Of a DNA stretch of 36,450 nucleotides, positions 2,199 through 27,792 are shown piece after piece (positions within the stretch are counted from its first letter, which is position 1; each line of letters opens with the position of its first letter). The notes beneath the pieces are model-generated. The model ran no database searches. It had not been told where the DNA came from and saw only the letters and a program-made list of their open reading frames with translations. The stretch lies in contig JAUCBJ010004981.1 in assembly GCA_032718475.1 (NCBI GenBank), positions 1 through 36,450 on the forward strand. Direction: 5' to 3'. This stretch comes from Nemertoderma westbladi. Taxonomy: Eukaryota > Animalia > Xenacoelomorpha. The position numbers and the translations under genes were made by a program.

Positions 2199-3000
2199 CC
2201 CAAATTTTTCTACAAATCTTTATCATATTGTTTGAAATTTGAAACACAACTAGTTCAACTCACCGTGGTTGTTACAATGAAGCCGGAATTTTCTATTTCG
2301 CCTTTAAATTTTATTGATAAGCGTTTTAAAAAAGTGTCTTTTGCGAAATCCCACCCTCTGTATCATTGCCATTCTTCACTTTAGTCGTAATTTTTTCACA
2401 TCAATAATAGAAAGCTTGCGTTGAAAGGATTCCAAATATGTAGCAATATCTGAATTTCGTTGAGAAACAGCTGAGAAATAGGCATTCAAAGATTGCAAGA
2501 ATTATTGTTCACTGCAGGCCATTTATTCCTTTTAATAAATACACAATATTCTAGAACGTGTTATTTATTTTATGAGTTGGTATACAACAGCGGTATGCCT
2601 ATACAATATCTATATTGCCTTGCTAATCATACATAAACAAATTGTTCCAGAATATTGTGTATTTATTAAATAGAATAAATGGCCTGCAGTGAACAATAAT
2701 TCTTGCAATCTTTGAATGCCTATTTCTCAGCTGTTTCTCAACGAAATTCAGACATTGTTACATATTTGGAATCCTTGCAACGCAAGCGTTCTATTGATGT
2801 GAAGAAATTACGACTAAAGTGAAGAATGGCAATGATACAGAGGGTGCGATTTCGCAAAAGACACTTTTTTAAAACGCTTATAAATAAAATTTAAAGGTAA
2901 AATCGAAAATTCCGGCTTCATGGTAACAACCACGGTGAGTTGAACTAATTGTGTTTCAAATTTCAAACAATATGATAAAGATTTGTAGAAAAATTTTGGG
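2199..3000. repeat. Long inverted repeat (foldback): arms about 2199-2557 and 2644-3000, 86-bp spacer
   Basis: The arms are reverse complements, >90% identical by eye. This is why ORFs 2142..2384(+) and 2814..3062(-) translate almost identically. Probably derived from a non-autonomous DNA transposon. Confidence 0.9.
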
Positions 3001-5254: not shown

Positions 5255-6293
5255 AGTACGATGGTTCGACAACATTTGTGTCTACTGTTGACGGTGACAC
5301 AGAACCATTTGAAGTGTTATGGGGCGTCCTCCAAGGAGACACACTTGCACCATTCTTGTTCATTATTGTGGTTGACTATGTTCTACGCATGTCCTTAGAT
5401 CATCATAATGATGATGGGGTGATGATAACTCCACCTACTGGCTCCAGAAGTTGATGAAATCTTGCCAAGTACCTAACTGATCTAGACTTTGCTGATGACT
5501 TAGGAGTACTCTCAGAATCATTAGAGGGAGCCCAACGGCTCCTCGGCTCATTATAACATGCTGCTTCTAGTGTTGGTCTTTTTATTAACTCCAGAAAGAC
5601 CAAAATTTTGACAGTTAACTTTGAAAGTCCTCAGCAAGTCTCTGATCGGATGAGCATAAGCTCAAAGGATGGTATGCTTGAGCATGTGGACGACTTCTGT
5701 TACCTGGGATCATGGATCCAGAAGTCAGGTGAGTAATATGTAAGGGAAAGGCATGGGCAGCCTTAAAGAGGCTTTCCAGGATTTGGAAGTCACCGAGAAT
5801 TAATCGGAAACTTAAGGTCCGATTATTTAGAGCAGCAGTAGTTCCAGTACTCCTCTACGGGAGTCCATGCTGGGCTCTAACTGCTGAGGACACCAAATCT
5901 CTGGATGGCACATTCACAAGAATGCTACGCCGGGTTCATTGTGTCAAGTACAATGCACACATCTCCAACCAGACACTATATAACATTGGAGGTGTCTCAT
6001 TGGTTCCCTCAAGCTTGACACTAGAACAAAATCGCCTCCGCTTTGTAGGACATTGCTTTCACCATGAGGACCAGCCAGTGCATAATCTTGTACTTTGGCA
6101 GCCTCATGGTGTGAATAAGCATGGTGGACAGCCCATGACTTTCTTGAGACGCATCTTTAAGGACACTGGCCTTGAAGATGTGGATGATCTAGCAAATGTT
6201 ATGGGTGATAGGGAGTTGTGGCGGTGCAATTTTGTTGACCGGCACAGCATTCTTAAAAATGCAGCTGCAATGCAGCATGCCGATCCTAGTAGT
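5255..6293 (+). mobile_element. 5'-truncated RTE-clade LINE (C-terminal RT to 3' tail) with target-site duplication
   Basis: GVLQGDTLAPFLF, DLDFADD, GLFINSRKTK, DFCYLGS and RLRFVGHC, with stops and frameshifts. Ends in a TAGTAGTA tail. Flanked by the direct repeat TTTCTCTCC at 5246-5254 and 6296-6304. Confidence 0.9.
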
Positions 6294-6680
6294 AATTTCT
6301 CTCCCTGGAACATTGGAATTATGTGGAAGATCTGAGTATCTGCTGTATCAGTGTCAGTTGGTATTGTTTATTGTTTTGGTTAAAAAAAACCGATACTGTA
6401 ATCTGCTCCTTTCCCTTAAGTTAAATTAAATGAAGTTTTTAAAGCCACAAAACACATATTTGGTGAATTGCGCCATTAACTTCTCGAGGTACATCACAGG
6501 TTAGTTTTTGAAGCCTGTGTTTCGCTAATTACTACAGTATGATAACCTCTGAACAATTATTATCATAAAACAAGTTAGATGACTATATCACAATCAATAA
6601 ATTAATTGAATTATTATTAAATTATTGTTTCTTATGATTAATTTCATATGATAATATAATTATTTATTTTAAATATTCAG

Positions 6681-6922: not shown

Positions 6923-8399
6923 GTATGATACTGAACCAGGGTATTCTAAACAACAGCCCTGGCAACCTACTAGAACAGTAGTGTTTACCGTAATGCAGTA
7001 CTATGCATTTTTAATGTTCATTCTTAAATAATAATAATGATAGTTTGATAAAATGTAGGTTAGATAGTTGCTGCTTAATTATCCGACACTTCCCTGGAAG
7101 TATCACCAAACAGGCATAAATAATTTAATCCCACCTGTTGTTGATTGGCTGACTGGCAGCTCATGCTCAGCCATGTATCATTTACTAGGCTGTTCATGGC
7201 GGTCTTCTTAATCATGTACGGTATAATTATTGTTTATGGTTGTCTGGTCTAATCACTGAAACATTGGCATACTTATTAGCCATTTGTGGTGGTCCCTAAC
7301 GTGCTACGTGAAGACCACTGCTTCAGTTTTTACTGTATGCTGTTAAAATTCTATATACTGTGTACAAATACTGCTATATTGTAAAAGGCGGGAAATTCAA
7401 ACAACAGCTGTACCGTTACTTTTGTTCATTGTGTCTTACTTATCTGTATATATAGAATAAAGGTTTTTGCATTCAGATTATTTCAGTTCAGCATTCACAC
7501 TGTCGTATCCTAACCCTCAGGTACTGATCCATTACACATTACACTAATTAATTAGCCTAATATTGTATTTACCCAGTAGAGTATATTAAGACCAAGGTGC
7601 ACATAGCTGGAAAGCTATAAACAATATTATAATAATGTACATTGTTTACTGCAGTTGAAAATACACCTGTCATTCTAGGCTTCCAGTTTTCTCTAGCACT
7701 CCTGCGAACATTAAGTTTTCTAGGCCTACATGTGTAAAATATTTTTGTAATTAATTTCATATGTTATTTGTAGATATTTATTTTACTACTACAGTTACTA
7801 CTACTTGGCATCTCACTGCTAATTAAGGTTCACCCAGGCAGAGTTGGATAGTTCTGAAAGAGGACAATTATCGAAAGCTAACAAAAGCTACTGAAAGTAA
7901 TGCGAAAATTATCGAAAAGGTTAAAGCAGGGGCGAAAGCTATCCATCTACTGATAGGGGTCACATTTTGCACTTTCAAACTTCAGACATTCATAAACAAA
8001 TAAGATATGGGCTCTAATTCAAATATTTGCCGTTTAATTTGAAATAAACCTTTGCGAAACATACTACATTCACCGATGCAGTACACCAGTAAGGATTGTT
8101 GTAATACAATGCTAGACTAGGCTACTGCAGTAGCAGTACTGGGGCCCTCCCTACTCATGTACTCTGCTACCATCAGATTCAGTCCGGTTACTGTCTGACC
8201 GCATGGCGGCGCATTACTGCATTACAGCATTAAGGACTGAAGGATGGCTTACAGTACAAACTGAGTACTGGTAAATTTTCCACCAATACTTAGTTATTGC
8301 CATGGTGGAAATTCCAGACGAGGTAGGACTGCAATATATGTGAGCGATTCTTTGAAAGTATCTGAATGTCCTGAGTTCCAGATTGTGGGACTCAAGAAC

Positions 8400-10940
8400 T
8401 CAAAATGGGTTAAAATTTCCAGATCGGGATCCAAGTCCATTATTATTGGCTCAATTTACCGCACAGATGCTGTATCTCCAACCGATTACTTAACCCTATA
8501 TAACGCTACGCTCAACAGACTTACTGAAATAAACACAATAATTACTGGTGATATAAATATACAGAAGTATACCGAAGGAAAATAGATACTATAGCAAATA
8601 CAGAAGGATTATACTAATTTACTGAACTCCTTTGGATATATAAAAATTCTAAACCATCCAACTCGCGTTGATCCTAAGTTGATTTCTGCAACTCTTCTAG
8701 ACCACATAATTACAAACATTACTACTGCAGTTTCGAATGCTTTCAATTGCAAAATAGGTAACTGCGATCACCACTCGACTTTCATCATCCTTCAAAAATT
8801 TATTGTGTTTATAACAATCCAAAACCTCGAACATCTTATGACTTTTCAAAATTCGATGCTAAACGCTTTCTTCGGAATATTAATTCAACGTCCAATTGGA
8901 CTTACATGGACGAATCAATTCCTTTGCATTTAAAATTTGACCACTTTTACAAAGACTTTACGAAAATATGTACTGACAATTTACCTACTAAAATTTATAA
9001 CCACAAAAATCGACCGATTAAACCTTGGATTAGTGACAGCTTACTCAAATCCATTCACACAAAGGACAAACAAACTGTTCCTTCTAAAAAATAAAACCGA
9101 AACCAATCACTAATTGTTCACCTTTTACCGTAACTGACTAACATCAACTCTGAGAGCAGCTGAAAAAAATATTTTTTTTCAACAATTTGACAATAACTCA
9201 AACAATATTCGCAAAACATGGTTTATCATCAATTCTGTTTTACAAAAATGTTCATCGAGATCATCTCCAAAAAAACTAGTCATTAAAACTGATTCGGACA
9301 CAAAAATTATATCTGATCCTCGGGAGATCACTGATGCCTTTAATTCATATTTTGCAACAGTAGGTTCTAAACTGCAGAATACTTTACCTACCAGAAAGGA
9401 AACTTCACTGGTTGAACTACAGTATAGAATTCTTCACCTTAAATTAAATTCCAGTTCCAATGATCCTTTTCCTCCTAAACTCACTACAATAGCAGCTGAA
9501 CAGCTTTCTCCCCATTTATGTTACTTATTTAATATTTCAATCTCTGCTGGCTTCTTTCCCAACTCCTTAAAAATTACCAAAGTTATTCCTCGTTTCAAAT
9601 CGGATGACCCTTCTGACGCCAACAATTACCGTCCCATATCTCTCCTTCCCATTTTCAGCAAAATTCTAGAACAAATTTTAGACGAACAATTACAGTCTTA
9701 CCTTTACAAATACAACCTAATCACTAGCTCTCAATACGGCTTCCATCCCAAAACTTCCACTTCGCATGCGATAAAATTTCAATATGATTTCAATTGATTT
9801 CAATATGCGAAAAAATTTACACTATGCTCGACTCCTATCAGACAACTTGTGCAGCTTATATTGACCTTAAGAAGGCCTTCGACACTGTAGACCACAAGAT
9901 CCTTATAAAGAAACTTGATCCCTATGGTGTTAGAGGTATTCCTCTTAAACTAATTTCGAATTTTCTATCCAATCGGAACCAATTTGTTTCAATTGACGGC
10001 ATTAACTCTACTTTATTACCGATATCATGTGGTGTACCACAAGGATCTTGTCTCGCCCAAACACTCTTCCCCATATTTCCCCACCTTACTTAGCACACTT
10101 TTTGTCGACGACACAACTCCACTCAACTCCCATTCAAACATTGACCTCCTAGTCTCTACCACAAACAACGAACTTTCAAAACTCAATGACTGGCTAACTG
10201 ATAACAGACTACTCCTTAATTAAAAAAAACACGAATACACCATTTTTTCCAATATTACCACTACAAACAAAATCAACCATCCAATTAAAATCAATGATAC
10301 CGAAATTAAACAAACCGCACAAAATTATAACATACATAATATATAATAGACACAAAATAATACAAAATTACTGGGTATTTGGTTAGATGATAATATGCAA
10401 TGAAAACACATACTAAATACGTACTTAAGAAAATTATAAATCTACCAGTATCTTTTATAAACTTCAGCATATCTTTCCTTTTAACATCCTCCGAACTCTA
10501 CATTTTACACTAATTCATCTTTACAACAAGTACGGTATAATACTATGGGGTAGTTCCAACTCTTCTTTACTTAAACCACTGCGCACTTAAGTTAACAAAC
10601 TAATTCCTTGTATTACCTTTTGCTTTTCACACTACCGGGCTTCCTCATTACCCATATACAAACAACTTAAAATTCTACCACTCAATAAACTCTACGAACT
10701 TTCCATTGCTACTTTTATTCACAATATTCACTCAAAATTTATAAGTACCACTTCATTACTTAGTAAACTTTTCCAGAAATGATCCACAATTGACAACTAT
10801 TACACTCGCTCCTCCGCCCGTAGTGATTTTACCATTCCACTTTTTCACCTCGCTTCTTCTCAACGTTCCGTGAATTTTCGAGGGCCAAATAATCTGGAAC
10901 TCGGTGCCCCTCGAGATACGAACCAAAAAAAGTCATCCTT
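8400..10940 (+). mobile_element. Degenerate, 5'-truncated CR1/L2-group LINE ORF2 (APE plus RT)
   Basis: Motifs across frames: IIIGSIYR, ITGDINI, PTRV..SATLLDHIITN, KPWISDSLLKSI, NYRPISLLPIFSKILE, QYGF, IDLKKAFDTVDH, YGVRG, GVPQGS and LFVDDT. Many frameshifts; boundaries approximate. Confidence 0.88.
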
Positions 10941-11085
10941 CATTCATAGCAGCATTTAATTTGAATTTAAATTTTGAATTGAATTTTAAGACTATGACTT
11001 TTCAACAAATTTATAGAAAAATGATCATCCTCAACATCATTAACCAACAATCAAAATAGTATTCGTGAAGCAATCCACCAGCACC

Positions 11086-12303
11086 TGTAAAAGCTTTTGT
11101 GGGATAACTGATTCGTTTGCCTTGTTGGCCAGTTCCCCCCCGGTCGCTAGAATACTCTAAAGGGGATCTATAGTTAAAATAGTGCAAGCTACCAGCTTAT
11201 TGGCTGATTTGCTGTACGCAGGTATCTGGGCTCTGTTTAATCGGCCAACCAGCCTAAGAAGGTTGCGTCATAGCCTTGTTTTGTATCTCCCAATAGAATT
11301 TGAGTTAGCCTTGATTTTGACCTATCACAGAGCTACTGAACTGAAATTTTCCTATCTCACTGCTCTTTCTCTGTGTTGAACGGGAGCTTCGTGGAATAAG
11401 GGTAGTTGGTATCCTCGTATAGAGCAGTAGTCACGAGTTTTTCAAAGCCACGAAAGAACGGCTTTGTAGTGTTTTGTGCTTTCTGCTTTTTAGCTCAACA
11501 CTAGTAGGTTTAATTATAAGGACATATATCCTTTAACTCATGGAAACTCATGGAATCACTGATCTGTGAATACTGCTGACACACGGCTTTTAATAACTGC
11601 TGAAACTGCTAAAAATTACCTGCTCAATCAATACTGTATACTGCTATTTGTTGTCGGTTATTCATTATATTTGTTGATGAATTATTATATTGGAATAACG
11701 AGAAATAACCCCGACACCCAATATTCTTGATATACCGAAGGTAAGAGAGAAAGGTTACCAATAACGATTGTGACTTATGTTAAAGTGGTTTGAAGTGAAT
11801 CTAATGTTATTTGATAGACCCTACATGAGTCAGTCTGTGTTCCTTTTATATGTGACTAAAATCAGTGAAGATTGGCAGATTAGTGTGCAGTATTGTGCAG
11901 CATTGTGTATGAGTGAGTCTGTTAAAGAAGCATTTCCTAAAGAATGCGCTATATATGTGAATTATAATTAAGCCATATCGTTGTGAGTAGTTTAAGTCAT
12001 AACTCTGTTTATATAGATAAAGCGCCACGTCCTAAAGGAACTGTTAATATTCCCGAAGGTGAATAATATTGTCAGAGATTATATAATACTGTCAGTCGAA
12101 TAATACATTAGGCTTACATAGCAATAAAATTAAACCGTCGAACCCAATCTCCCGGGAATATCCAGCGGGTGAATGATCGCGCACAGATTGGTTTCGACTA
12201 GTGTAGTGAATCAAATACTTCTCATAGGCTAAAAAGCGATTTAATATCTAGAAGACATCTTAATTTGGCGGGTTAAACTGCCAAAGGTCTGAAAGCGCGA
12301 ACA
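11086..12303 (+). repeat. 5' LTR
   Basis: TGTAAAAGC...GCGCGAACA; direct repeat of 21537-22754. I found only two substitutions by eye (about 11243 G/A and 12221 C/G). AATAAA at 12123-12128. Confidence 0.97.
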
Positions 12304-12315
12304 TTAAAGGATATA
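12304..12315 (+). promoter_or_regulatory. Primer-binding-site position; non-tRNA sequence complementary to the element's own LTR
   Basis: TTAAAGGATATA directly follows the LTR-terminal CA and has no TGG. It is the exact reverse complement of TATATCCTTTAA at 11525-11536 and 21976-21987. Confidence 0.6.
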
Positions 12316-12382
12316 GCTTCTTTATTGCAGTAAGCAATAAAGTTGAAAGTACCGGTCAACCGGTAAACCTGAAAGGTACATC

Positions 12383-12497
12383 TGTAGGTCAGTAGGCCCA
12401 ACTGCCAGAACCGGTACTGCCGTAGGTCCGTAGGTCCAACTGCCAGAACCGGTAATTCTGTAGGTCCGTAGGCCTAACTGTCCTAACCGGTACTTCC
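12383..12497. repeat. 38-bp tandem repeat, 3 copies, in the LTR-element leader
   Basis: Unit approximately YGTAGGTCCGTAGGYCCAACTGCCAGAACCGGTA(N5), starting at 12383, 12421 and 12459. Confidence 0.9.
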
Positions 12498-12676
12498 CGT
12501 ATAAGTACATTAGTATTATTCGATTTTGATAGTTATATACCGGTAGGCCTTAATAATTAATCAGGGACTGCAGCCCTGGTTTTTTATTGAGATTTTTACT
12601 TATTTCTGTCAAGTTTTATTTGTTTGTAGGCCAGTATTGAACAGAAGGCGTGTAAGCCTGATCAGATTGTACAGAC

Positions 12677-13240
12677 AATTTGTAGGCTGAGCTGTTGTCT
12701 GATTGCTGTTAAGTCTGAACGGATTGCAGTGTGTGTAGATCATCTGTCCGATTAAGTACGGTTAGGAAGTAGGGGCAGCGAATGCTGTAAGGTAAACCCC
12801 CAACTAAAGAATAAGTCGTACTACTGGGTTAGAACGCATACTCCCTAATCATTTCGGAGTCTGCATGTCCTGTAGTTTATTTAGGCTTGAGAGTAGTCTG
12901 CCATCGTTTAGTCTGTACTTTGTTTGTGTAAGTCTGTACGGGTAGCGTATAATTTTATTTAGATAATTTGTAGGCTGGATAGTTGTCTGGCTGTTATTAG
13001 GCCTGAGCGGATTGCAGCGTGTGTAGATCACTTGTCCGATAAAGAACGGTTAGGAAGTAGGGGCAGCGAATGCTGTAAGGTAAACCCCCAATTAAAGAAT
13101 AAGTCGTACTACTGGGTTAGAACGCATACTACCTAATTATTTCGGAGTCTGCATATACCGTAGTTTGTTTAGGCTTGATAGTAGTCTGTCAGTGTTCGGT
13201 CTGCATTTTGTTTGAGTAGTTTGTACGCGTAGCGTAATAT
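12677..13240 (+). ncRNA. Tandem pair (period about 288 nt) of a structured cis-RNA module: long G.U-rich stem topped by a near-invariant core
   Basis: Units start at 12677 and 12965. Stems of 12, 29, 10, 5 and 12 bp can be drawn, and substitutions between the copies preserve pairing (see findings). Family unknown. Confidence 0.65.
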
Positions 13241-14180
13241 TTATTATTCAGAGTTTATGCGATTATTCGCAACATTCATTCCCCAAGTTTGTTCCTACAG
13301 TAATTGTGTTTGTTATACATACCGCTATAGTTAAATTAACCCCGGTACTACACGGGCTGCTTGGCGTAGGTAAAGACTGGTGATTTTGTGCATCGGTCAC
13401 TCCAGCAGATGCCGTGGTTCTTTTAGCTGTTCAAGTATATTTAACTACTGATTATCTGTTGTACAAGTACTCGTACCTAATTTAGGGTTTAGTGTACAGT
13501 GCTTTCCGAGAGTAATTAGTGTAGGCATTATATTTGTGTTGTAAAGTGGTTGATAGGCACGTTCGATTAGCTCTATTAACTTCTAGGTAGGAACACTCCG
13601 TGATACATAACGTAGAACCTATAGCGATACGGCTATAGGTCGTCAGGCGGTGGTATTTTCCTATCTAGACAACGCAGTGTATTTACTACTACTTATTATT
13701 TCAAATACCGCATTACCCTGTCCGTTGTAATAACCAGAATTCTAACCCTTTGTTAGGCTGGTTTGTAGACTTCTTGTAAAATTACCCTAAAAATTCGTAT
13801 TTTGTGTTTTGTAAATTTTTATGTTTATTTAGAGATTGTAATCTCACCCGAATTGTATGTAATTTGTAGTATTAAGTAACTTAGGTAAATTATAATTATT
13901 TGTTTTAGTGTCCTATAAGTAACACCTCACTGAAAGCGCACCGCTTTGTGTAGTGATTACTCCCCAGAAATAATAACATTTATTTCAAACATTGACTAAA
14001 CCCATTAAAACGGGTATATATATATTATAAATCAAATCTAACGATTTATAAACAGTAGGCCTACCATATAACCATTAGGTCTCAATATCAGTTGGACTAC
14101 TGCTCAAATAACGGTAATAAAGTAAGTAGAGTAACCAAGTAACCCTAAAGTTCAGAAATTCAATTATTTAAAATAATTGA

Positions 14181-14395
14181 TATACCGGTATTTATGATAG
14201 GCCTATTATCTTTATTTCTATAAATTTAGGCTGAAATTATACCGGTACTTGTAATTAATTCTAGTCCAGAATTATATATACTACAAACTGTAAGCTGTAT
14301 ACCGGTATTCCCGATAGGCCTATTATATATTTATATATATTTGTGCTAAAATTATACCGGTATTCTGTGATAAACCTAGTCTGTAATAATACTTA
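14181..14395. repeat. Degenerate tandem duplication of about 117 bp in the LTR-element leader
   Basis: TATACCGGTATT..GATAGGCCTATTAT...AAATTATACCGGTA..CTAGTC recurs at 14181 and 14298. Confidence 0.75.
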
Positions 14396-14602
14396 TCAAG
14401 CATCTTTATCATTATCATTATCTCTTTATCATCCTTATCATTAGCAATTATCTTAAGCATACCGGTATTTAATATATTATATATATCACGCTACACTGAG
14501 TAGCAGTATCGGTAATTAATTACTAGGCTAGCAGTTAATACTGAATTACTAGACTTGCTCAGACTGTAATATAGCAGTAGGCATTCAACTGTACTCACAA
14601 AT

Positions 14603-17600
14603 ATGTCTGATACTAAGCAGAACCTGTCAGACAGTCTATTAGATGTAACTATCTGCGACTCAGATAGAGGTGTAGAACCCTCTAGTCGTAAGTTCAGTTC
14701 ACCTCCCACTGTGAGGAAGGTCATCCCTCCAGTAGTAATAACAGAACCTAGGCTAGTCCAACATCGTAGGTCTATCATAGGCACCCGAGCTCAGGTCAAG
14801 CGGGACCAAGAAGCAGCGGAACAGCAACAACCCGCGAGTCAGGAGCTTGTTACTCAGCGGCCCAGCAGCTCCAGTAGTGAGGATACTGTAGAGCTGACAC
14901 CCGAGCGCGGAGCAGAGATGACGGATGCGGTTTATACGGATCCCCTTCTCATCCTTCCTGCAGCCGTACTCACTAGGTTATTGATCGCGGTGGAAGAACA
15001 CCAGATCGATTGGGCGAGAAGTCAACGACCAACTAGAGATAGTTATGCGGGATACACGAGGGAAGAATTGAAGTCTATTGTCGAGTCGCAATGGAACTTC
15101 CCCGGACCCGGACTCCCGTTTGATTTATCAGAAGCTGCCTGGGAAGACATACACCGGATGGGAGTAGCCAAGGAAACCATCGATCCAGCTGTGTGGAAGA
15201 GGTCCGCAGCCGGATACGCACAGGGATTCTTCAGCTCTATGGAGCGAGTAGAAAAACAACTGTTTAAACAACCTCAAGGACCTCAAGAGCAGGGACAGCT
15301 GCTTTATCAAGTTAGAGAAAGAGTTCTGCGGATTAGGCTAATCTTATCCGCCTTTGAGGAGGCTTCTAAAAGAAAACAAGACACGTCGTTGCAAGTTGCC
15401 GTAAAGACTTGGTTTCAACGGGTGAGTCGCCAGGTTCAAGGAGCAGCTCAGTGGAAAGCTCAGTTGGAGGAGCGCTCAACCCATGGAGAATCAACAGACG
15501 CTACTTTTTCCCAAGTGGAAAGTGAAGCGACGGCAGAGAAACCGCATAAGAAGGATGCCATTGACATCTATCTGTCAGACTATCAGCGTTTTTTAGGAGA
15601 TGACGAGTTGAGGAGAAGGCTGGAGGGACTTAGCCCTAACAGCGAAGGAGCCAAACTTGTGTTAGATGCAATTGATGTGGATAGGTTAGCGGCGAACCAA
15701 GCTAAATTCGATGAACAACTCCGCATCGCCAAGGTTCAAGAAGAACAAGTAAAGAAAAAACGTATAGAAGATAGAAAGACAGCAGCAGCGGCAGTGGCAG
15801 CGGCAGAAGCGGAAAGAAAGGCAGCAGAGGCAGCGGCAGAGGCAAAAGCGGCAGCTGCAGCAATGAAAGCGGCAGCGGCAGAAGCGGAAAGAAAGATAGC
15901 AGTGGCAGAAGCAGAACGGAGGGCATCTGAAGAGACAACCCAACTAGAGTTGGAAAATCTTCAAGAGAGGCAAGATAACTTTAATAAACAGTTAACAGCT
16001 AGTAATATGCAGATGATGAATCGATCTACTCCCAAACGACAAGGTTATACATCATCTGAGGAAGGCGATACCACCGACACTGAAGGCGGAGGAAATCGAT
16101 CCCGCCTAAGCAGACGTAAAAGAACATTCCACCGTCAGAAATTGCCTGATTTGCCTCCAGCTGTTAGAAGGCAACTAAATAACACCAACTTAGAGAGTAC
16201 AGAACCCACAGACCAAATAATTACAATAGAAAGACTCCCTACTATATTAGATGAGCCTGAAATAAGTAGGCCTGTTCTTGAAATCACCCCTTCGGTAATA
16301 GATACACCTGTGCTCCCTGAAGCTACCTATAAATTCCCTCTGCATAGCACTAAGCTACCTGTGCCCCGTAGAACTGCCCAGGAGACAGTTCAGGTCCTGG
16401 ACCCCGAGCGAAATATTCCAAATTTGTCGCCCGTTGTCCCTCGTCTGCCCGCTACGACGTTGGCGGATCCCGTTTCGGCGGTTGATTGGGTAGACGAGAG
16501 ACGGCGGGGGATGGATATTCTCCTCGGAGAGATGAAGGAGAATCGGATACGCTCCTCCCAACAGGTCCGAGAGTTGGAAGGGACTGTCCAACATTTAAAG
16601 GGAACAGTGAGAGAAAGTAAGTTAGAGTTGCAAGAAGTGCAGCAAAATATCGCGCTAGAGCGCGATAAATTAGTAAATTTACAAAAGGGTATACCACCAC
16701 CCCCTGTAACAATGTGTCAACCCGTTAGGTCTGAAGTATCTCATGCGCAAGGTGTGGAGCCTACACGCATTTATACTGCTAGCGAAGTAGAAACTCCTAT
16801 AGTGAACCCTATTAAGGGTAATTATAGACCTGTTGATAATGATATTCCATATAGAACTGATCATAATCCGAGAAATTTATATACCGATAACTCGATATTA
16901 AATAACACGATGGCCCAAGAAAGTTTTACGCGTCAAATGGCTAGAACCGAAGCCCGGCAAGCGGTGAAGGTGGGAGAGATCGTCAAGTTCAATGGAGATG
17001 AGATGAAATGGTTACCTTTTAATGAATTTTACAAAGATAACATACAGAACTCTGTACTATCTAATGGAGAGAAACTAAGATTCCTCATCGAATGTTTGGA
17101 AGGACCTCCCAAGTCAATGGCGTTAAAATTTATTGGACATCCAGATGGATTAAGACAAGTTTGGGATACACTAAACATCAGGTATGGTAATAGGACTAAC
17201 ATAGCTAGGTATTTATATGCGAAATTAATGGCGCCCTGAAAGTTTCTTAGCAGCGGGATTATAGAGTTTTCCGATGAGATTCAGGAGATCTGTAGACAAC
17301 TAGATTGGTTAGGTAAGTCTCATGAATACCAGAATTCTATGGTTGTAGGAGCCTTAGCATCTACTTTGCCCAAGGGTGGAGTAGGTACACGCTGGGACAA
17401 GAAGGTGTTATATATGATGGAACAACAACAACGAGACCCTACCATGGCTGATCTCATGTCATTCTTAGATGGAGAAGTGAAATTACAGCTCCTAAGACAG
17501 TCCAGAGAGAAGACACTGGAAAACAAGGTAAGTGAGAAACCCGTCTCCAGAAGAAAGGTAACACCAGTGTGTTATACCGACGATGGCGAAAGCCAAGCTT

Positions 17601-18559
17601 CCCAAGGGGAGGATAGCGGGAAAGACACTGAAAGATCTTATTATGTCAATAAAATGCCTAAAGATCAGGTAAGTAAATCCAAGTCTCGACCCAATGACAG
17701 AAGGGAACCGGTACAAAAAACCCTTCCTACGTCTCCTAAAAGAATTCAGGTGAGAAAGCCCGAGGAAAGAACAAGTGTGCACCACATAGCACAGGTTAAA
17801 GTAAGTAACATCAAGCCGAAATGTGTGTTGTGCGACGGGCCCCACCGTTTAAATGCGTGTGATAAATTCCTGAGGAAATCACTCGAGGATAGACGTGAAG
17901 TCATGTGGGATAAGCGGTTGTGTTATAATTGCCTCAGACGAGGACACCAACGGCGAACCTGTAACTCCGACGCAAGGTGTGCAAAGTGCGGCGCAAAACA
18001 TCATATCTTGTTGCACACGGAATTCGAACGAAACAGCCCGAGTCAGGTAAGTGAGTCCGAACTACATGTCCAATTCAGTGATGTGAACGACACTGATCAA
18101 TCTGAGATGGAAGGATTCTATACGGACGAGTTCTCCGACCAAAACGAATCCTGTTACCTAATAAACACCACCGCAGTGTATCGAGTACTCGTGCATGAGA
18201 AAGACACAGACAGCGACCTTACCTTAACTACTTCCGATCAACAACCATCTTGGAAAGCGCCAACTTCCAATATAGGAATCCGAGAATTTCCTGTAGTCCA
18301 GTTACGGGTCCACGGACCTCAGAAGAGCTATATAGTGAACGCCCTCCTGGACTCCGGTAGCACAGGAACATTCATCGATAAAGAACTAGCCGAAGTCATC
18401 TTTGCTGGACAACCCAAGTTCCGAACCAAGCTAAACATGTCAGGGATCATATTCGTGTTTATTGCGTACGTAATTACGTATATATTATATTTAGTGCGAC
18501 GGCAAGAAATAATTCTTTTCCTTCTTCCTTACTGTCCGTATTACATTACAAATACGTAA
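14603..18559 (+). CDS. gag: BEL/Pao Gag-protease reading frame with one in-frame TGA (17237-17239); protease truncated near 18447
   Basis: ORFs 14603..17239 and 17339..18559 share a frame with no other stop between them. DUF1759-like KFNGDEMKWLPF...EKLRFLIECLEG...LNIRYGN. Knuckles CVLCDGPHRLNAC, CYNCLRRGHQRRTC and CAKCGAKHHILLH. Protease VNALLDSGSTGTFI, after which the frame runs into AT-rich sequence. Confidence 0.9.
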
Positions 18560-18844
18560 CTACAGTAAGATGAAATGTCCGTACTTATTAAAGTACAATA
18601 AAGCCACTACTATATTTAAGTATTATTGGTAGGCAGAGTATTAGGAATGCAAAGTTCAGATCCTCGTGTCTCGGCTAAACCAAGCTCTGGGTAGACCTTG
18701 GAAACGACTTGCCTCTTCACACTGACATTGCTTCGTGCGATATTGCTCTCATACCGTATATTAAATAATACATATAGTAGCGTGATGTCCCTTTAACAGT
18801 AGCGTATCACGCAAAATAAATCTGTTAAACCCTTTGACCATCTG

Positions 18845-19122
18845 TAATTCTAGTCGATTAAGATATCGCGGCACCCACCGATATACTTGAAAGACAAATT
18901 CTAGAATCAGTGGTTAACGTCCCCAGACAAGTTCTGGAATAAATCGGTGCCCATCTCAAATATTAATTATTTAATATTTGCAAATCTAATAAATCAAAAT
19001 CTGTAAAATTCAGATCCTTCAGCAATTCTAGTCAATTAAGATATCGTAGCATTTACCGATATTCTTAAAAAGACAATTGTCATAGAATTAAGGATCTTGT
19101 GTCCCCAGACATATTCTAGAAT
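18845..19122 (+). repeat. Two diverged copies (about 18845-18940 and 19023-19122) of a hairpin-forming ~95-nt unit
   Basis: Both copies keep the ATTCTA/TAGAAT, GTC/GAC, TTAAG/CTTRA and ATATCG/CGATAT pairings, followed by GTCCCCAGACA. Confidence 0.7.
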
Positions 19123-19757
19123 CAAAATATGTCAACTTAATTATCAAATAATAAAATTTCAGGGAATAAATTTAAATTCATGCCTTTTAATGAATTTAAT
19201 AAATTGCCATTTTTACGCAATTTATAACATTCCCAAAATTCCATTAATTAATAGATCAAGGGAGCGGAGATTTATCTTATTATGTGTATGAGTGTGCGAA
19301 AGTCTCCCAAACATAGTCAATAGCCGATAAAATTCATAAAGTCATGTATAAAACAGAACATTGACTATTAAAGAATACTATTAAATAACATCCCAGATCT
19401 GTATGCATTGGAATTACCCTAATTCTACCGCTAGCTTTGCATAATGTCACCATAGCAACAACCACGCTAGAATTAGAATTGAGTTAAAAGAACAATAGAA
19501 AGCTTGTCCCATTGAATAGCATAGGGAATAAATAGCGCACTACTAGTATCCAAGGATACATAATAATACAGTGACATTCTGGAAGGCATTGACTAACGGA
19601 CAAATGGCCCGAATGTGTGTAGTTGTGACCAGTTGTGTGGTATTTGTGAGTTTATAGGTGAATGTTACTGCTAAAGTGTGTTTACAGTAGCTAGTCGCAA
19701 TCGTAAAAGTAACCTAACTCTCCAAGGAAAACCTGAAGTACATCTAAGCCTTTGGGA

Positions 19758-19903
19758 CGGACAGTTGAGTGACTTGTGCCGGTTGTCGTTGTCGTTGTGC
19801 GGCTACGTCGTTGGCGAAAGTACAGCGGCGACGACAAATCGGCGCTGAGGATCTCGTACTGTCCGGGGGTTGATTGGGGTAGGCAGCGACGCCCGCTCGC
19901 CTA
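19758..19903 (+). ncRNA. Long G.U-rich RNA hairpin (19758-19865) plus a small hairpin (19880-19903), upstream of the extra ORF
   Basis: CGGACAGT/ACTGTCCG outer stem. GTGCCGGTTGTCGTTGTCGTTGTGC pairs with GTACAGCGGCGACGACAAATCGGCGC using several G.U pairs, which work only on the + strand RNA. Confidence 0.6.
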
Positions 19904-19922
19904 AATATAAACTCATTATAAT

Positions 19923-21458
19923 ATGGATAAACTCATATATAGCAGATATGACGGAGTTGATAGAAGATGGTCTTGGTATCGGGGAACGATATACTCTACT
20001 TTCAAACGTTTGTTTATAGCTTGATACGCGGTGATACTAGTCCAACTACTACGAAGGATGATGGTCGTTATATCGAACCGCCAATGTCCCAAGAGCAGCT
20101 CACGCGTGAGTTGGACTATAAGAAATTCACCGCTCGCTATACGCATCGTAATGGTACGTATGTGGGCTTCTTAACTACTGGTCATCCTATCGATTTACAC
20201 GATACGGACAATGTCGACACCAAAAGGGAAATGGTACGATTGAAATATCCTTCCCAGCGGAGGCGGAACGATAAACCGAGAATGGAACACGAGAATTCTA
20301 TTCGAAACAGACTCGAAAGAGAAGACGTTGAGGAGCCGGATAAACGCAGCGACTTCAACGATTATCTGGAATTCCTGATAGAAACATATCTCAATATTGC
20401 CAGTCAACAAAATCTAGAAACTCGATATCCTCAAGGTATCACATCCCATGGTAGAACTCAAACGGCTCGATTCCCCTATGATGTATCTTACCGCCGATCG
20501 ACCGCTACCTGTTGTACCGAATAGCTTCGAACGGATGGAGGAATATTGTAAGCTGGAGAAAGATCACTCGCGTTTCCCCTACAAGACGTACGTTTTTGGG
20601 TATTATTACGGTAAATGCCCTAGACCCAGCCAATAAACGGAAAGACATAAACATCCACGGAAACGTTGTGTTAAACACAGTTGTGTTCGTTATATTTACT
20701 GGAGTTTCGAGCGAAACTTGTTTGACGTATCACCTATGCTCACTCGGCTCTAACGATCCTAGAGTAAACCTACGATCAGAGTCCCGGAATACTCGGTCAA
20801 ACCTCCTCATTCCTTAGTTGGACCTCAGACCTGCGATCCTGGTGGTGTCGCGGATCCTCGCGGACGGTATTCACTGTTCAAGATCTAGTGCTACCCTAAC
20901 AATTAATCGGTAACACTCCGACAGTGATTTCTAGCTAGCCGCCCATCTTACCTAGCCGGATTATGACGCAGACACCTAATATCACTATCCAACCGTATGG
21001 TCGTCCCGTTTAACGCAATACAACCCTTCATCAAGGTGAAGGAGAGCGTTGTACGAAACGAGTTAAACGCTATTCTATAAAGATCAAAAAAGAAACCTGC
21101 GTTTGTTCAGACAAACGTAAGTTATAACAGTAAGTCCAATCGATAAACGAATTGGCCTTATCTCAGTTCGATTGGGAAACCTCGAATCTCAAAGAAGATA
21201 TCAAGCTTAGAAAACCCTATTCTCTGCGAGAGTTTTGGACGAACGTATCCCATGACAAGCGGAGGAAAATCAGCTCGAGGAGAAGCATATCGAAATGGAC
21301 GAGACACCGACCGTAAACCCAAACCTTTTAATGCAATCATATTGCACCCTTCACCCAGGAGTTATGGCCCTCCTAGTAAAGTGGCTTCCCCCAAAGAGAA
21401 AATGACTCTTGCTAGCTTTAAAAAACTGCGTAAACGCCGTCCGCGCAAGAAAGACTAA
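19923..21458 (+). pseudogene. Probable decayed extra ORF of the LTR element (env position), product unrecognised
   Basis: Balanced base composition with overlapping + strand ORF pieces (19967..20524, 20448..20636, 20512..20817, 21252..21458). Ends KKLRKRRPRKKD* just before the PPT. No domain recognised. Confidence 0.45.
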
Positions 21459-21528
21459 CTGTTTAGAGTATTTTTATATTTTAGAAACTGTGATTTGGTA
21501 TATTTTATAGACTTAAATCCCATTTTCT

Positions 21529-21536
21529 GGGAGCGG
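21529..21536 (+). promoter_or_regulatory. Short polypurine tract (plus-strand primer)
   Basis: GGGAGCGG immediately 5' of the 3' LTR's TG. Confidence 0.6.
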
Positions 21537-22754
21537 TGTAAAAGCTTTTGTGGGATAACTGATTCGTTTGCCTTGTTGGCCAGTTCCCCCCCGGTCGCTA
21601 GAATACTCTAAAGGGGATCTATAGTTAAAATAGTGCAAGCTACCAGCTTATTGGCTGATTTGCTGTACGCAGGTATCTGGGCTCTGTTTAATCAGCCAAC
21701 CAGCCTAAGAAGGTTGCGTCATAGCCTTGTTTTGTATCTCCCAATAGAATTTGAGTTAGCCTTGATTTTGACCTATCACAGAGCTACTGAACTGAAATTT
21801 TCCTATCTCACTGCTCTTTCTCTGTGTTGAACGGGAGCTTCGTGGAATAAGGGTAGTTGGTATCCTCGTATAGAGCAGTAGTCACGAGTTTTTCAAAGCC
21901 ACGAAAGAACGGCTTTGTAGTGTTTTGTGCTTTCTGCTTTTTAGCTCAACACTAGTAGGTTTAATTATAAGGACATATATCCTTTAACTCATGGAAACTC
22001 ATGGAATCACTGATCTGTGAATACTGCTGACACACGGCTTTTAATAACTGCTGAAACTGCTAAAAATTACCTGCTCAATCAATACTGTATACTGCTATTT
22101 GTTGTCGGTTATTCATTATATTTGTTGATGAATTATTATATTGGAATAACGAGAAATAACCCCGACACCCAATATTCTTGATATACCGAAGGTAAGAGAG
22201 AAAGGTTACCAATAACGATTGTGACTTATGTTAAAGTGGTTTGAAGTGAATCTAATGTTATTTGATAGACCCTACATGAGTCAGTCTGTGTTCCTTTTAT
22301 ATGTGACTAAAATCAGTGAAGATTGGCAGATTAGTGTGCAGTATTGTGCAGCATTGTGTATGAGTGAGTCTGTTAAAGAAGCATTTCCTAAAGAATGCGC
22401 TATATATGTGAATTATAATTAAGCCATATCGTTGTGAGTAGTTTAAGTCATAACTCTGTTTATATAGATAAAGCGCCACGTCCTAAAGGAACTGTTAATA
22501 TTCCCGAAGGTGAATAATATTGTCAGAGATTATATAATACTGTCAGTCGAATAATACATTAGGCTTACATAGCAATAAAATTAAACCGTCGAACCCAATC
22601 TCCCGGGAATATCCAGCGGGTGAATGATCGCGCACAGATTGGTTTCGACTAGTGTAGTGAATCAAATACTTGTCATAGGCTAAAAAGCGATTTAATATCT
22701 AGAAGACATCTTAATTTGGCGGGTTAAACTGCCAAAGGTCTGAAAGCGCGAACA
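21537..22754 (+). repeat. 3' LTR
   Basis: 1218-bp copy of 11086-12303, followed by the TSD GCACC. Confidence 0.97.
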
Positions 22755-22940
22755 GCACCCCCCCCCCCCCCCCCCCCCCACCCCATTCCCCCCATTCCTG
22801 TCCCTCTCCGAAAATCCTTCCCACCCCTAATCCTGCTGTCTATTGTGGCTCACCCCAATAGCACTAGCTGCGCTATTTGTTGCGGTGAGTTGCTGAACCA
22901 ATTAAATTTTTTATTATTTTTTTATATACATTGTGCATGT

Positions 22941-24473
22941 TATAATATATTGCTGTATGTGCAGCAGAATGAAATAAATACAAATATATTGGTATTCAAG
23001 GGATAGTGCAGTGGTGAGGCCTACAGGTTTTACTATCGCCGTGTTATCAGTACTAGAATCGAATATTGCTTTAAAAATATTATAAGAGTTTTTAATGAAT
23101 AGACCATCATCAATGCTGTAATGCGCCCCCACATGGTCAAGGGGGTAGCTGGTCTGATGGTGTAGCAGGGTAGGGACTGTAGTACTAGTAGCCTACTGGT
23201 AATCAAGTAATGGAATGCAGGTCAGACCTAATGAACAAGCCTAGCACTCTTGTAGTTTAGAGAGAGCTTACTCTTCGTGAATTAATATTTCGCGATGGAA
23301 TATTTGAATGTAAAAGGGAATTATTTGAATTAAAGCCCATATCACTTTTGTTTATGAATGCCATCGAACAAAGAAAGTGAGAAATGTGCACCCTATCAGT
23401 GAATGGATATCTTTCACCCCGACTTTAACCTTTTCGAATTCTTTCAGTAACTTTTGTTAGCTTACGGTAATTGTCATCTTTCAGAACTATCCAGCAGAGT
23501 TTCTCCCTCCCAAAAAAACATTTTTTAGGAGAGTTTAAAAATGGCTCTGCAAAATAAGGAAAATTGTTAATGTAACGCAGACCAGTATATGAATTGCGTT
23601 AATTTATATATTTATTTCTAGTTGATTAATAGTTACCAAAATATATACATGTAAAATTACTACATTGACCAACATCTAAATAATTATTTATTAAAATATT
23701 CAAGCAGCCACTTTACAAAATCATTTTAAATACAACAATTTAACAACGTCAACAACGCATCTTTCAACAACGTAATCTTCAACAATGTATTTTTGCAGAT
23801 TTATCTGACAAACAACACTGACCCAGCACTCCTCAACGGTCTTGGTGGAAGTGTTACAACTCCTTGTGGGACACTAACTGGCAACAATGTGGATTTAATT
23901 AATTGCAAAGGTGATGTTGGACGATATGTTGTTTTCTTCAATGATAACGGCCAGATCCAAAACTTTTGCGAAGTAAAAGTGTTTAATACATTCCATCCAT
24001 AAAAAGCATACGATTACGATTATAGCATATTTATATATAAGCCAAACTTATCTAACTATCTAACTATTTATTACAATTAATTGTTTGACTACAGTATTAC
24101 ATCAAACGTCAAAGAAATTAAATTCATTTATGGAAAAACTTGAGATTTATTATACAACCTTATGAAAAACTTTCCTCAACGATATAGCATAATCGTAGTG
24201 CAGAACTACTTCTATTTATTTGTTGGTGCCTATGAGAAGTGCGGAATAGCGAATAATATCGAGTAACATCCACTCTAAGTCCGTAATCTACGAATCAATA
24301 TGACCACAAGATTGGGTATCGTCAGTTTGTATCAGTCTTGTTTAAACGCTTAGTAACCAAAGAGTAAACAACAAAAATAAAAATTATAACTAAAATAATA
24401 AATACAGAGGATAATCTATTTATGTGTCACATTTCATGCGATCTTATTAATATTAAACTAAATAAAACAGTAA
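22941..24473. repeat. Segmental duplication, copy 1 (about 1.5 kb; copy 2 is 30121-31640)
   Basis: Collinear, with a few SNPs and small indels. Contains the MULE right TIR, the lectin terminal exon and the 3' UTR. Confidence 0.95.
23799..24002 (+). CDS. Terminal exon, C-terminal half of the F-type lectin domain (copy 1)
   Basis: ttttgcag|ATT, phase 0, matching the donor at 6922. Translates IYLTNNTDPALLNGLGGSVTTPCGTLTGNNVDLINCKGDVGRYVVFFNDNGQIQNFCEVKVFNTFHP*, with the C..GRYV and CEVxVF motifs. Confidence 0.92.
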   Translation: MYLTNNTDPALLNGLGGSVTTPCGTLTGNNVDLINCKGDVGRYVVFFNDNGQIQNFCEVKVFNTFHP

Positions 24474-24477
24474 AATA

Positions 24478-25246
24478 AGACCGGCCCCATCCCCAAAACC
24501 AACGTCCCTCCCACCGAGACCGGCCCCATCCCCAAAACCAATGTCCCTCCCACCGACACCGACTCCATCCCCAAAACCAATGTCCCTCCCACCGAGACCG
24601 GCACCATCCCCAAAATCAATGTCCCATTCTCTGAGACCGGTTCCATCCCCAAAACCAACGTCCCTCCCACCGAGACCAGCCTCATCACCAAAACCAATGT
24701 CCTTCCCACCGAGACCGACTCCATCCCCAAAACCAATGTCCCTCCCACCGACACCGACTCCATCTCCAAAACCAATGTCCCTCCCACCGAGACCAGCACC
24801 ATCCCCAAAACCAATGTCCCTCCCACCGAGACCGTCCCCATCCCCAAAAACAATGTCCCTCCCACCGAGACCAGCCCCATCCCCAAAACCAACGTCCCAT
24901 TCTCTGAGACCGGTTCCATCCCCAAAATCAATGTCCCATTCTCTGAGACCGGCCCCATCCCCAAAATCAATGGCCCATTCTCTGAGACCGGTTTCATCCC
25001 AAAATCAATGTCCCATTCTCTGAGACCGGTTCCATTCCTAAAATCAATGTCCCATTCTCTGAGACCGGTTCCATCCCCAAAATCAATGTCCCATTCTCTG
25101 AGACTGGTTCCATCCCCAAAATCAATGTCCCATTCTCTGAGACCGGCCCCATCCCCAAAATCAATGTCCCATTCTCTGAGACCGGTTCCATTCCCTAAAT
25201 CAATGTCCCATTCCCTGAAACCGGTTCCATTCCCTAAATGAATGTT
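24478..25246. repeat. 39-bp minisatellite, about 20 units, two unit variants
   Basis: GAGACCGGYYCCATCCCCAAAAYCAATGTCCC followed by TCCCACC (mostly left half) or ATTCTCT (right half). Produces spurious 13-aa-repeat ORFs. Confidence 0.95.
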
Positions 25247-26358: not shown

Positions 26359-27792
26359 ATGTTATCAAAAACATATTCGGCATCAATTATGTTATCGAAA
26401 ACGTCTTCGGCGTCATATTATTCAGCCAAGGAAAGTTTACCTCCGAATGAAGAAGAGATTATACCGGCCCCGGAGGAACCACAGCCAGTCCCGTCTGTCC
26501 CGCGCAGAAGGAGAAAACGGACATCGGTGTTGAAGCGATTGTGGCGATACATAACAAGCCATGGACCCTGTTTCTGGTTCTGTAGGGCCTTCATTGCTCT
26601 CTGTGTTCTTAGTGTTCTTTACGTGCTGGTGAAATTAGCGATGGGGGATGATTTAAGGAAAGAGAAGGTAGTTGGGATCCAGACGGTTGGCACAGACAGG
26701 GATCGATACCATACGACTCAGTGGATTGGAGAGACCGAGGGTTATAGTACAGATATATCAGCCACTGACAGTACCACTGGTACAGGGATACCAGCCACCG
26801 ACAGTACCACTGGTACAGAGATATCAACCAACGACAGTACCACTGGTACAGATATATCAACCAACGACAGTACCACTGGTACAGATATATCAACCAACGA
26901 CAGTACCACTGGTACAGATATATCAACCACCGACAGTACCACTGGTACAGAGATATCAACCACCGACAGTACCACTGGTACAGATATATCAACCACCGAC
27001 AGTACCACTGGTACAGGGATATCAACCACCGACAGTACCACTGGTACAGAGATATCAACCACCGACAGTACCACTGGTACAGGGATTACAGCCACCGACA
27101 GTACCACTGGTACAGGGATTACAGCCACCGACAGTACCACTGGTACAGGGATATCAACCACCGACAGTACCAGTACTACTGAGGTTTCAGCCACAACAAC
27201 GATAATCTCCGAGAAGGATGACTTTTATCGGTCGTTTATCGACTGCGATAGAAGTAAAAGAGAATGCGATCCCTATGATCCTGAAATATGCGATAAGCCG
27301 ACAGAATCCGATCAATATACCGTCGATATCGTACACCCACTCGAATATGCAAGAACTAACGACAAGAAACTAAGATGCGATCGCGATTGGATCATATTTT
27401 ATAGACGTATCCCCAACTCCAGCAGCAATAGTAACCAGTACCAGGTGGGGTTCGGAGATTCCAAAGGAAGTTACTTCCTGGGCCTATTGAATATGCGTTA
27501 TCTGACAGAGGATAGGGTATGTTTTATGAAGATTGAATGTGGTACAGCCACGGTTTTATACGGAAGCTTTACTGTGGGGGGTGCCGGTTATCCTCTAAAG
27601 ATTACAAGTTATTACAATGAGTCCAATACCGGTGTATCTGCTAATGAAAGAAACTGCGATCTCACTGTTTACAACAACGAGGGGTTTGATTTAAATAAAG
27701 GATGGTGGAATGGCGGACCTCCCCCAAGTGAATGGGAAACAAAAACTGAAACTATTGAGATGAAGGTGAAATGCAAGAAACCAGTCGTGTGA
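26359..27792 (+). CDS. Intronless type II membrane protein: cytoplasmic tail, TM helix, Thr/Ser mucin-like stalk, divergent fibrinogen-related domain (FReD); 477 aa
   Basis: First ATG at 26359. Basic RRRRKR..KRLWR precedes hydrophobic FWFCRAFIALCVLSVLYVLVKL. Thirteen 11-aa repeats follow. FReD motifs: CDRDWIIFYRR, YQVGFGDSKGSYFLGLLNMRYLT, YGSFTVG..YPLKI, GWW and EMKVK. Confidence 0.85.
   Translation: MLSKTYSASIMLSKTSSASYYSAKESLPPNEEEIIPAPEEPQPVPSVPRRRRKRTSVLKRLWRYITSHGPCFWFCRAFIALCVLSVLYVLVKLAMGDDLRKEKVVGIQTVGTDRDRYHTTQWIGETEGYSTDISATDSTTGTGIPATDSTTGTEISTNDSTTGTDISTNDSTTGTDISTNDSTTGTDISTTDSTTGTEISTTDSTTGTDISTTDSTTGTGISTTDSTTGTEISTTDSTTGTGITATDSTTGTGITATDSTTGTGISTTDSTSTTEVSATTTIISEKDDFYRSFIDCDRSKRECDPYDPEICDKPTESDQYTVDIVHPLEYARTNDKKLRCDRDWIIFYRRIPNSSSNSNQYQVGFGDSKGSYFLGLLNMRYLTEDRVCFMKIECGTATVLYGSFTVGGAGYPLKITSYYNESNTGVSANERNCDLTVYNNEGFDLNKGWWNGGPPPSEWETKTETIEMKVKCKKPVV
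26749..27177 (+). repeat. Coding 33-bp tandem repeat, 13 copies (TxIS/TxxDSTTG)
   Basis: Unit ACAGRKATATCAACCACCGACAGTACCACTGGT, in frame. Three units carry N-D-S glycosylation sequons. Confidence 0.95.

Follow-up and report, generated by a model that had tools for sequence, protein, structure and literature searches.

The leader of a BEL/Pao LTR retrotransposon found in the analyzed window (36,450 nucleotides of contig JAUCBJ010004981.1 of Nemertoderma westbladi) contains two tandem units, located between the primer site and gag, with a period of 288 nt and 87% identity, each of which is predicted to fold into a long, G.U-rich hairpin (further called a rod) as plus-strand RNA. Very probably, this plus-strand fold is under selection. 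The best explanation of the rods, to which we assign a probability of about 45%, is that they are a packaging signal, in which branched heads placed on a meltable scaffold are likely to be bound by the Gag protein of the element itself.

The host element of the rods

The element carrying the rods spans positions 11086-22754. Its LTRs (11086-12303 and 21537-22754, both on the plus strand) are 1218 bp long, have TG...CA ends and differ at only two positions, and the target-site duplication GCACC flanks the element on both sides; these few differences and the 5-bp duplication indicate a recent insertion. The 5′ LTR is followed by an AUG-poor leader (12304-14602, plus strand) with 8 AUGs observed and 36 expected, which is 2299 nt long, as compared with crude leader lengths of 39-1342 nt in 14 control BEL/Pao loci. 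The next frame (14603-18559, plus strand) encodes a long unique N-terminus, a DUF1759 domain (E 5e-13), three zinc knuckles, whose C/H columns are invariant in the alignment, and the start of an aspartic protease. An in-frame stop codon (17237-17239), falling in the DUF1759 region, precedes the zinc knuckles, and the similarity of the frame to BEL/Pao polyproteins stops before position 18450. The Gag homologs (16 matches at 22-45% identity, and the best 150 of 12462 representatives at 25-47%) were all BEL/Pao polyproteins, none of them close (22-47% identity overall), and 15 of the 16 carry PF03564.

Neither RT, RNase H nor integrase was detected in the element, since tblastn with 47 proteins longer than 1400 aa gave matches only within 16500-18450. 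The element is a non-autonomous BEL/Pao derivative, which kept gag and has no pol, in agreement with the first-pass annotation, which had thought of a non-autonomous element. Of the features characteristic for BEL/Pao elements, it has the TG...CA LTRs with a target-site duplication and a Gag with DUF1759 and three zinc knuckles followed by protease; it has neither a Pol with RT, RNase H and integrase nor a primer site for tRNA-Arg or tRNA-Gly. Short variant contigs matching the leader were numerous in two DNA sequencing runs (13,882 and 2,646 records), which points to a highly repeated family.

The N-terminal part of Gag (14603-16940) is unusually long (about 780 aa), contains an Ala/Glu/Lys-rich repeat (15782-15916) and gave no Pfam match. 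Three short plus-strand frames in the 3′ region (19964-20524, 20482-20817, and 21147-21458), also without a Pfam match, are possibly remains of an extra gene; for the first of them no homolog was found among longer proteins and no Atlas match at ≥0.9, and the last one ends with a Lys/Arg-rich tail. Other short duplications occur in the non-coding parts of the element, at 12375-12494, 14181-14391, and 18838-19070 (38 bp present three times; about 116 and 178 bp present twice).

Two tandem rods in the leader

The duplication, described in the first-pass annotation as a unit of about 270 nt, proved to be real, but its period is 288 nt and the feature begins near position 12656. Rod 1 (12656-12945) and rod 2 (12944-13233), both on the plus strand, have predicted energies of -105.8 and -112.6 kcal/mol, respectively, and the fold of rod 2 is that of rod 1 shifted by 288 nt. 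The left arm of rod 1 (12667-12740, plus strand) pairs with 12859-12931 in three registers of 12, 12, and 45 opposed positions. The previously noticed 12-bp stem (12681-12692/12906-12917) is indeed paired at 12 of 12 positions here and in its copy, and the 29-bp stem (12701-12729/12870-12898) has two mismatches in unit 1 and one in unit 2, including the reported changes of G.G to A-U and of C.A to C-G. A basal stem of 12 bp (12667-12678/12920-12931) had been missed; it is fully paired in both units despite six changes and holds the sole double change from one Watson-Crick pair to another found between the units (A-U to U-A). For this stem on its own, the pair-keeping has p 0.10 in one direction and 0.015 in the other. 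Uninterrupted Watson-Crick runs in the arms never exceed 4-5 pairs.

The whole rods fold far better on the plus strand than their shuffled counterparts (z -6.3 and -7.7; 0 of 60 shuffles as good), whereas on the minus strand they are ordinary (z -0.35 and -0.25). The same was obtained when the claim that the fold works only as plus-strand RNA was checked with dinucleotide shuffles: none of 200 was as good on the plus strand (z -4.3 and -6.6), as against 108 and 115 of 200 on the minus strand. When both units were folded jointly, two rods side by side were predicted. The best helix in the whole element crosses the units: 45 of 48 positions are paired when the left arm of the first is set against the right arm of the second, though the likeness of arms across units follows from the duplication alone.

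Three further strong plus-strand hairpins were found within the element, at 13536-13690, 16404-16527, and 19755-19875 (z -4.3, -5.4, and -6.9, respectively). The region of the gag hairpin and the 3′ region have two 15-nt words in common (14 of 15 letters alike, E of about 0.5).

Evidence for selection on pairing

At 69 opposed arm positions, G.U pairs outnumber A.C oppositions 22:1 in one unit and 25:2 in the other (p of about 3e-6 each), a ratio somewhat inflated by the choice of arm registers for their pairing. A decayed DNA inverted repeat would give G.U and A.C in equal numbers, and hence the excess of G.U speaks against such an origin. Among the differences found within the family, A>G and C>T are not in excess over G>A and T>C.

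The 30 differences between the arms of the two units break fewer pairs than expected, i.e., 3 of 64 instead of 7.95 (p 0.004) and 4 of 66 instead of 9.63 (p 0.002), where the pairs were taken from the minimum-energy fold of one unit and tested on the other, with the differences randomized among like letters. With two registers chosen jointly, an earlier version of this test had yielded p 0.007 and 0.044, while a version including the head stems gave p ≤3e-5, a value inflated by the conservation of the head. Comparison of the 94 modelled pairs between units showed 17 varying on one side, one varying on both sides and three mismatched in one of the units; the changes are mostly one-sided swaps between Watson-Crick and G.U pairs. 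The stems had been described as covarying; pairing is in fact kept, but the term is overstated for two copies with only one true compensatory pair. The shuffle control of this two-row comparison (263 of 500) is uninformative with two rows.

The control set comprised the best 80 of 510 confirmed BEL/Pao loci, all of them distant, which were found from an alignment of 11 BEL/Pao polyproteins; 54 of the 80 had at least 600 nt upstream. A plus-strand helix scoring at least 50 was present in 4 of these 54 loci, in each case strand-symmetric and with at most 4 G.U pairs, unlike the units described here, whose helices score 56-72 with 15-17 G.U pairs. Within the family, two differences in the arms (12966 and 12989) and one in stem P1 of the head (13132) would each break a pair if alone, and the corresponding partner changes were absent among the differences listed (40 of 158 entries). 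It should be stressed that the between-unit evidence comes from only two whole copies. The earlier proposal of a selected cis-RNA module is supported, on the grounds of fold energy and pair-keeping changes, for the plus-strand structure. A footprint of ADAR alone was rejected as the source of the changes, since U/C changes are as many as A/G ones (9 and 9 of 20).

In relatives diverged by about 16-19%, too, the right arm of a unit runs on into the left arm of a following one. Retroviral reverse transcriptases delete direct repeats readily: as reported in PMC3187697, a 110-bp repeat was lost in 41% of single vector cycles, and deletion was about 4-fold lower at 90% identity and below 1% when identity was under 82%. 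The retention of the tandem layout is a modest argument for its importance, because the units are only 87% identical. Joints indicating one unit (depth 9-62) or three units (depth 903) were rare in comparison with bin depths of 1e5-1e6, to which little weight should be given, as contigs collapse repeats and depth is not copy number.

The head and its three-way junction model

The head of rod 1 (12747-12858, plus strand; the corresponding head of rod 2 lies at 13035-13146) is closed by a neck (12747-12751/12854-12858). Pair probabilities, energies and a linked double change were used to model it. The predicted elements are stem P1 (12760-12771/12839-12850), stem P2 (12772-12775/12798-12801; GGGG/CCCC), hairpin P3 (12776-12779/12784-12787; CAGC/GCUG), an A-rich linker of 15 nt, nine of which are A (12802-12816), and a second hairpin, P4 (12817-12823/12830-12836), all on the plus strand. 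P3 is the CAGC-GAAU-GCUG hairpin recognized previously, and its pair probability is about 0.9; for P4 this value is 0.24-0.29. Combined, they give a predicted three-way junction, running from P1 through P2 stacked on P3, the linker and P4 back to P1, the energy of which is 1.1-1.2 kcal/mol above the predicted minimum.

Between the two units, the apex differs at three sites, as had been counted earlier (3 of 93 positions in 12758-12850 vs. 28 of 153 elsewhere; Fisher p 0.0003, or 0.005 after correction for the choice of the window compared). The description of this core as near-invariant holds for these two units but not for the family, in which several head positions vary; where the head begins, a diverged relative has different letters at about 7 of 26 positions (compared by eye, one contig). 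The likeness of the two heads may partly result from homogenization by template switching. The head alone does not fold better than its shuffles (z -0.65 and -0.4).

Within the units, 20 family differences were found among those listed (40 of 158 entries), 9 of which are the letter of the other unit and 11 are new. Nine of these 11 fall in the head: three in the P3 loop, three in the P4 loop, two within the P4 stem and one (13132) in P1. The two in the P4 stem form a linked double change, U-A to C-G at 12819/12834, both letters of which lie on a single contig in run X4 (depth 22 at each position) and necessarily also in X5; it supports the small hairpin and the three-way junction, though it may be one event in one subfamily. 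For the P1 change at 13132, the only matching partner letter came from loose ends of single contigs, which are unphased. The competition between GGGG/CCCC and AACCC/GGGUU proposed in the first-pass annotation is only partly borne out, since AACCC/GGGUU is the weaker pairing (probability 0.12-0.22) and the family variation favors P4, which was not named there. As a nested helix, AACCC/GGGUU is incompatible with P4. Its formation as a loop-to-bulge pseudoknot is possible, though one diverged contig alters those loop letters.

Searches for relatives

Rfam gave no match over the units and eight weak ones across 11000-23000 at E up to 5. Comparison of the units with the 80 BEL/Pao loci by blastn revealed no likeness (best E 0.5). 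A covariance model built for the head from two rows and 138 positions, run against 688,864 bases of BEL/Pao loci, found the two units only, and within the element it revealed no further copy. Neither the JGI metagenomes nor IMG/VR contained a match to an apex pattern in which 20 bases were fixed. A tRNA-like or Pol III RNA was rejected, as A and B boxes are absent from the leader, no tRNA was found and there was no Rfam match. A resemblance to telomerase CR4/5 or to a group I intron was likewise rejected for want of an Rfam match.

No description of a cis-acting RNA structure in BEL/Pao elements, of a leader structure among them or of their self-priming was found in the literature searched, a weak negative result, as most subscription journals lie outside this coverage. 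The rod form appears to be undescribed, although structured leaders of LTR elements as such are already known.

The primer site and scanning of the leader

The primer-site position (12304-12315, plus strand) has no TGG of a tRNA site, and TGG is absent from the 60 bases following the LTR. The first 12 bases after the LTR are instead exactly complementary to a 12-mer within the LTR (11525-11536, plus strand; second copy at 21976-21987). A 12-nt LTR complement at offset 0 was reached by 18 of 20000 shuffles. Among the control BEL/Pao loci, TGG was present within 14 nt in 15 of the 18 with a whole LTR end, and a self-complement longer than 7 nt occurred in 0 of 27. According to the ICTV profile, BEL/Pao elements are primed by tRNA-Arg or tRNA-Gly (PMC8742986). 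Self-priming, as defined in PMC6317226, is indicated by at least 10 nt, starting 0-5 nt after the LTR, which are complementary to the LTR, with no tRNA site, and this is what the 12-mer at offset 0 represents. Such sequences are described there for Tf1/sushi, Tcn1, and TAR, i.e., for Ty3/gypsy and Ty1/copia elements, whereas the element analyzed here is of the BEL/Pao type. Judging from its sequence, the 12-mer is a candidate Tf1-type self-primer in a BEL/Pao element.

As the 12-mer is contiguous, no splice junction would be needed to make it. TATA-like words (11950, 12010, and 12080) and AATAAA (12123) lie downstream of it, so that it would fall in U3. Fixing of LTR layouts needs RNA data (PMC3601003). 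The first 454 bases of the LTR (11086-11539) contain no ATG (none of the 23 AT dinucleotides there precedes a G, p 0.003), and acceptor-like words are present in the LTR at 11150, 11296, and 11493; the start of the transcript or its splicing may thus differ from the textbook LTR layout.

AUG is the most depleted of the 64 trinucleotides in the leader, where the probability of G after AT is 0.038 vs. 0.169 (p 2e-7, in a test allowing for the excess of CTG). Host flanks lack this depletion, and the 3′ region (p 0.003) and some stretches of the LTR have a weaker one. The depletion suggests that the leader is likely scanned. The palindrome ACCGGT occurs in the leader 11 times (0.4 expected), in two clusters (12351-12544 and 14184-14466), and TAGGC 18 times (2.6 expected), these counts resulting partly from short duplications. 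The clusters could be transcription-factor sites (those of ACCGGT being presumably Grainyhead-like) or RNA kissing sites.

Possible functions of the rods

The packaging interpretation relies on the position of the rods between the primer site and gag, on arms selected for pairing and a head selected more for its sequence, on an element which has kept a zinc-knuckle Gag but depends on the Pol of a helper, and on the caulimovirus precedent. The arms would be a scaffold selected for pairing and not for sequence, in which the G.U pairs allow formation as RNA but not as DNA, and which scanning ribosomes may melt. The head would be a three-way junction recognized by a protein, presumably by the zinc-knuckle domain of Gag. 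Binding of Gag would then clamp the rods, halt scanning and send the RNA into the particle, within which the helper element would supply Pol. Two heads would raise avidity, and pairing of the arms may also extend from one unit to the other or between two RNAs, possibly stabilizing a dimer. Each of these steps beyond the folding is what we infer. Alternatively, one of the other strong plus-strand hairpins (13536-13690, 16404-16527, and 19755-19875) could be the packaging signal.

In caulimoviruses, as presented in PMC5902531, the packaging signal tops a long leader stem with unconserved arm sequences; in CaMV this top binds the coat protein and has been proposed to redirect the RNA away from translation and into packaging. 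The leader hairpins of caulimoviruses (CaMV and RTBV) and foamy viruses resemble the rods in a long stem selected for pairing over sequence and in a purine-rich top (PMC5902531), and differ from them in that here there are two tandem 290-nt rods and not one, few AUGs inside, and an animal BEL/Pao element as the host. Like retroviral and Ty1 psi, the rods belong to an element with a zinc-knuckle Gag and lie behind the primer site and ahead of gag; a structured RNA was found at this site, and a self-complementary dimer-initiation loop was not. In retroviral psi regions, short hairpins are clustered and bear kissing loops or palindromes. That of Ty1, too, consists of short-hairpin clusters with such loops or palindromes (PMC5767303), whereas the rods are long, G.U-rich and have a palindrome-free head. 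For the dimerization signal suggested earlier, the head offers no palindrome that could serve as a kissing loop; palindromes of at least 6 nt in the units are confined to the base and to an arm or stem strand, with none in the head loop. Some non-autonomous LTR elements of plants (LARD and TRIM) have reported conserved RNA structures (PMC7215508); they encode nothing, while the element described here, a BEL/Pao one, keeps gag.

From the list of functions in the first-pass annotation, packaging and export fit the position and shape of the rods, and an IRES part is unlikely; a known ribozyme is not supported either. The main alternative, plausible but considerably less likely than packaging, is that the rods serve nuclear export or localization. 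The stem would then offer the junction either to a transport factor of the host or to a small basic protein encoded by the element, allowing the long unspliced transcript to exit the nucleus or to arrive in the germ line. HIV RRE is likewise a long basal stem bearing a multi-way junction, and musD has a structured cis-acting transport element, MTE (both in PMC5767303); such a stem and junction are predicted here, with one covarying pair in P4. Donor-like words (11741, 12059, and 14122), acceptor-like words (14229 and 14444) and the Lys/Arg-rich tail of the frame 21147-21458 are consistent with export, but this short basic frame and the other 3′ frames match nothing in Pfam and may not be genes. 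Transport elements are known mostly from pol, env or near the 3′ end, and the rods, which have no Rfam match, lie in the 5′ leader. We find it improbable that the head loads the reverse transcriptase of the helper or organizes tRNA-free priming, even though the rods begin about 340 nt behind a primer site with no TGG and a 12-nt LTR complement, because complements of the head to the rest of the element do not exceed 9 nt, the best 12 include none to the primer site or LTR, and Tf1-type priming is not known to require such a module. A broader version, rather unlikely as well, is that a BEL/Pao lineage which has lost tRNA priming possesses a structured RNA of a new class, in which the three-way head on a duplicated G.U rod either loads the Pol of the helper or itself matures the primer of the element, as a retrotransposon counterpart of the hepadnavirus epsilon signal. 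Equally improbable is the control of gag translation by the rods as a ribosome shunt, an IRES part or a scanning brake, although hairpins of -106 and -113 kcal/mol do sit in a leader under selection against AUG. Shunting in foamy viruses and caulimoviruses needs a short uORF ending ahead of the stem (PMC5902531); here, no short uORF ends just before the stable basal stem of either rod, the nearest upstream one ending at 12232. The IRES part named in the first-pass annotation is unlikely, as the rods are located 1.4 kb from the gag start and AUGs are few throughout the leader, the rods being no exception, which favors scanning over internal entry; the scarcity also extends over parts of the LTR and, mildly, the 3′ region, and so it is not leader-specific.

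The remaining alternatives are less probable still. About 70 nearly continuous pairs per rod, formed on one strand, would suit a Dicer substrate or decoy, serving as a source or sink of small RNAs for host RNA silencing, and the caulimovirus leader produces decoy small RNAs (PMC5902531); this is quite improbable, as the arms, from which small RNAs would come, change six times faster between units than the head (28/153 vs. 3/93). That the head is an unrecognized ribozyme seems highly improbable: its conserved, weakly paired core on a scaffold, with one covarying hairpin, resembles small ribozymes, but the units match nothing in Rfam at E up to 5, the hammerhead core word is absent from the leader, leaving the option of a known ribozyme unsupported, and self-cleavage here would sever the primer site from the genome. 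Just as hard to believe is a neutral relic, i.e., an ancient inverted repeat which template switching has duplicated and whose heads recombination has made alike. The other short duplications of the element (38 bp ×3; about 116 and 178 bp ×2) and a G+T-rich composition, which alone favors folding on one strand, would agree with it; against it are the composition-keeping shuffles, all of which were beaten, the G.U to A.C ratio with the pair-keeping changes, and the inverted repeats of the control loci, which are strand-symmetric with at most 4 G.U pairs on the plus strand.

The rods most probably serve an already familiar function, and so far their motif has been found in a single family. The existence of a structured leader is not surprising, because LTR elements are expected to have one; the novelty lies in its form, i.e., tandem RNA-only rods with a junction head and a tRNA-free primer site alongside. 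As the replication of BEL/Pao elements is "poorly understood" (PMC8742986), a 290-nt module with a defined scaffold and a testable head model, in a highly repeated and recently active family, offers a handle on how the RNA of a pol-less element comes to be selected for particles.

Other features of the window

Outside the element, a repeat of about 1.5 kb occurs twice at 97-100% identity (22946-24473 and 30128-31640); part of it is present once more, inverted, near 7845-8062. Long inverted repeats are formed by 588-981 with 5907-6297 and by 2198-2568 with 2633-3000 (89-97% complementary), and the outer of the two encloses LINE-like endonuclease fragments. Furthermore, LINE endonuclease and RT fragments are present at 33779-36193 and an RT fragment at 9138-9797, and minisatellites were identified at 24478-25245 (period 39), 26747-27172 (33), 28004-28253 (38), and 33369-33843 (30).
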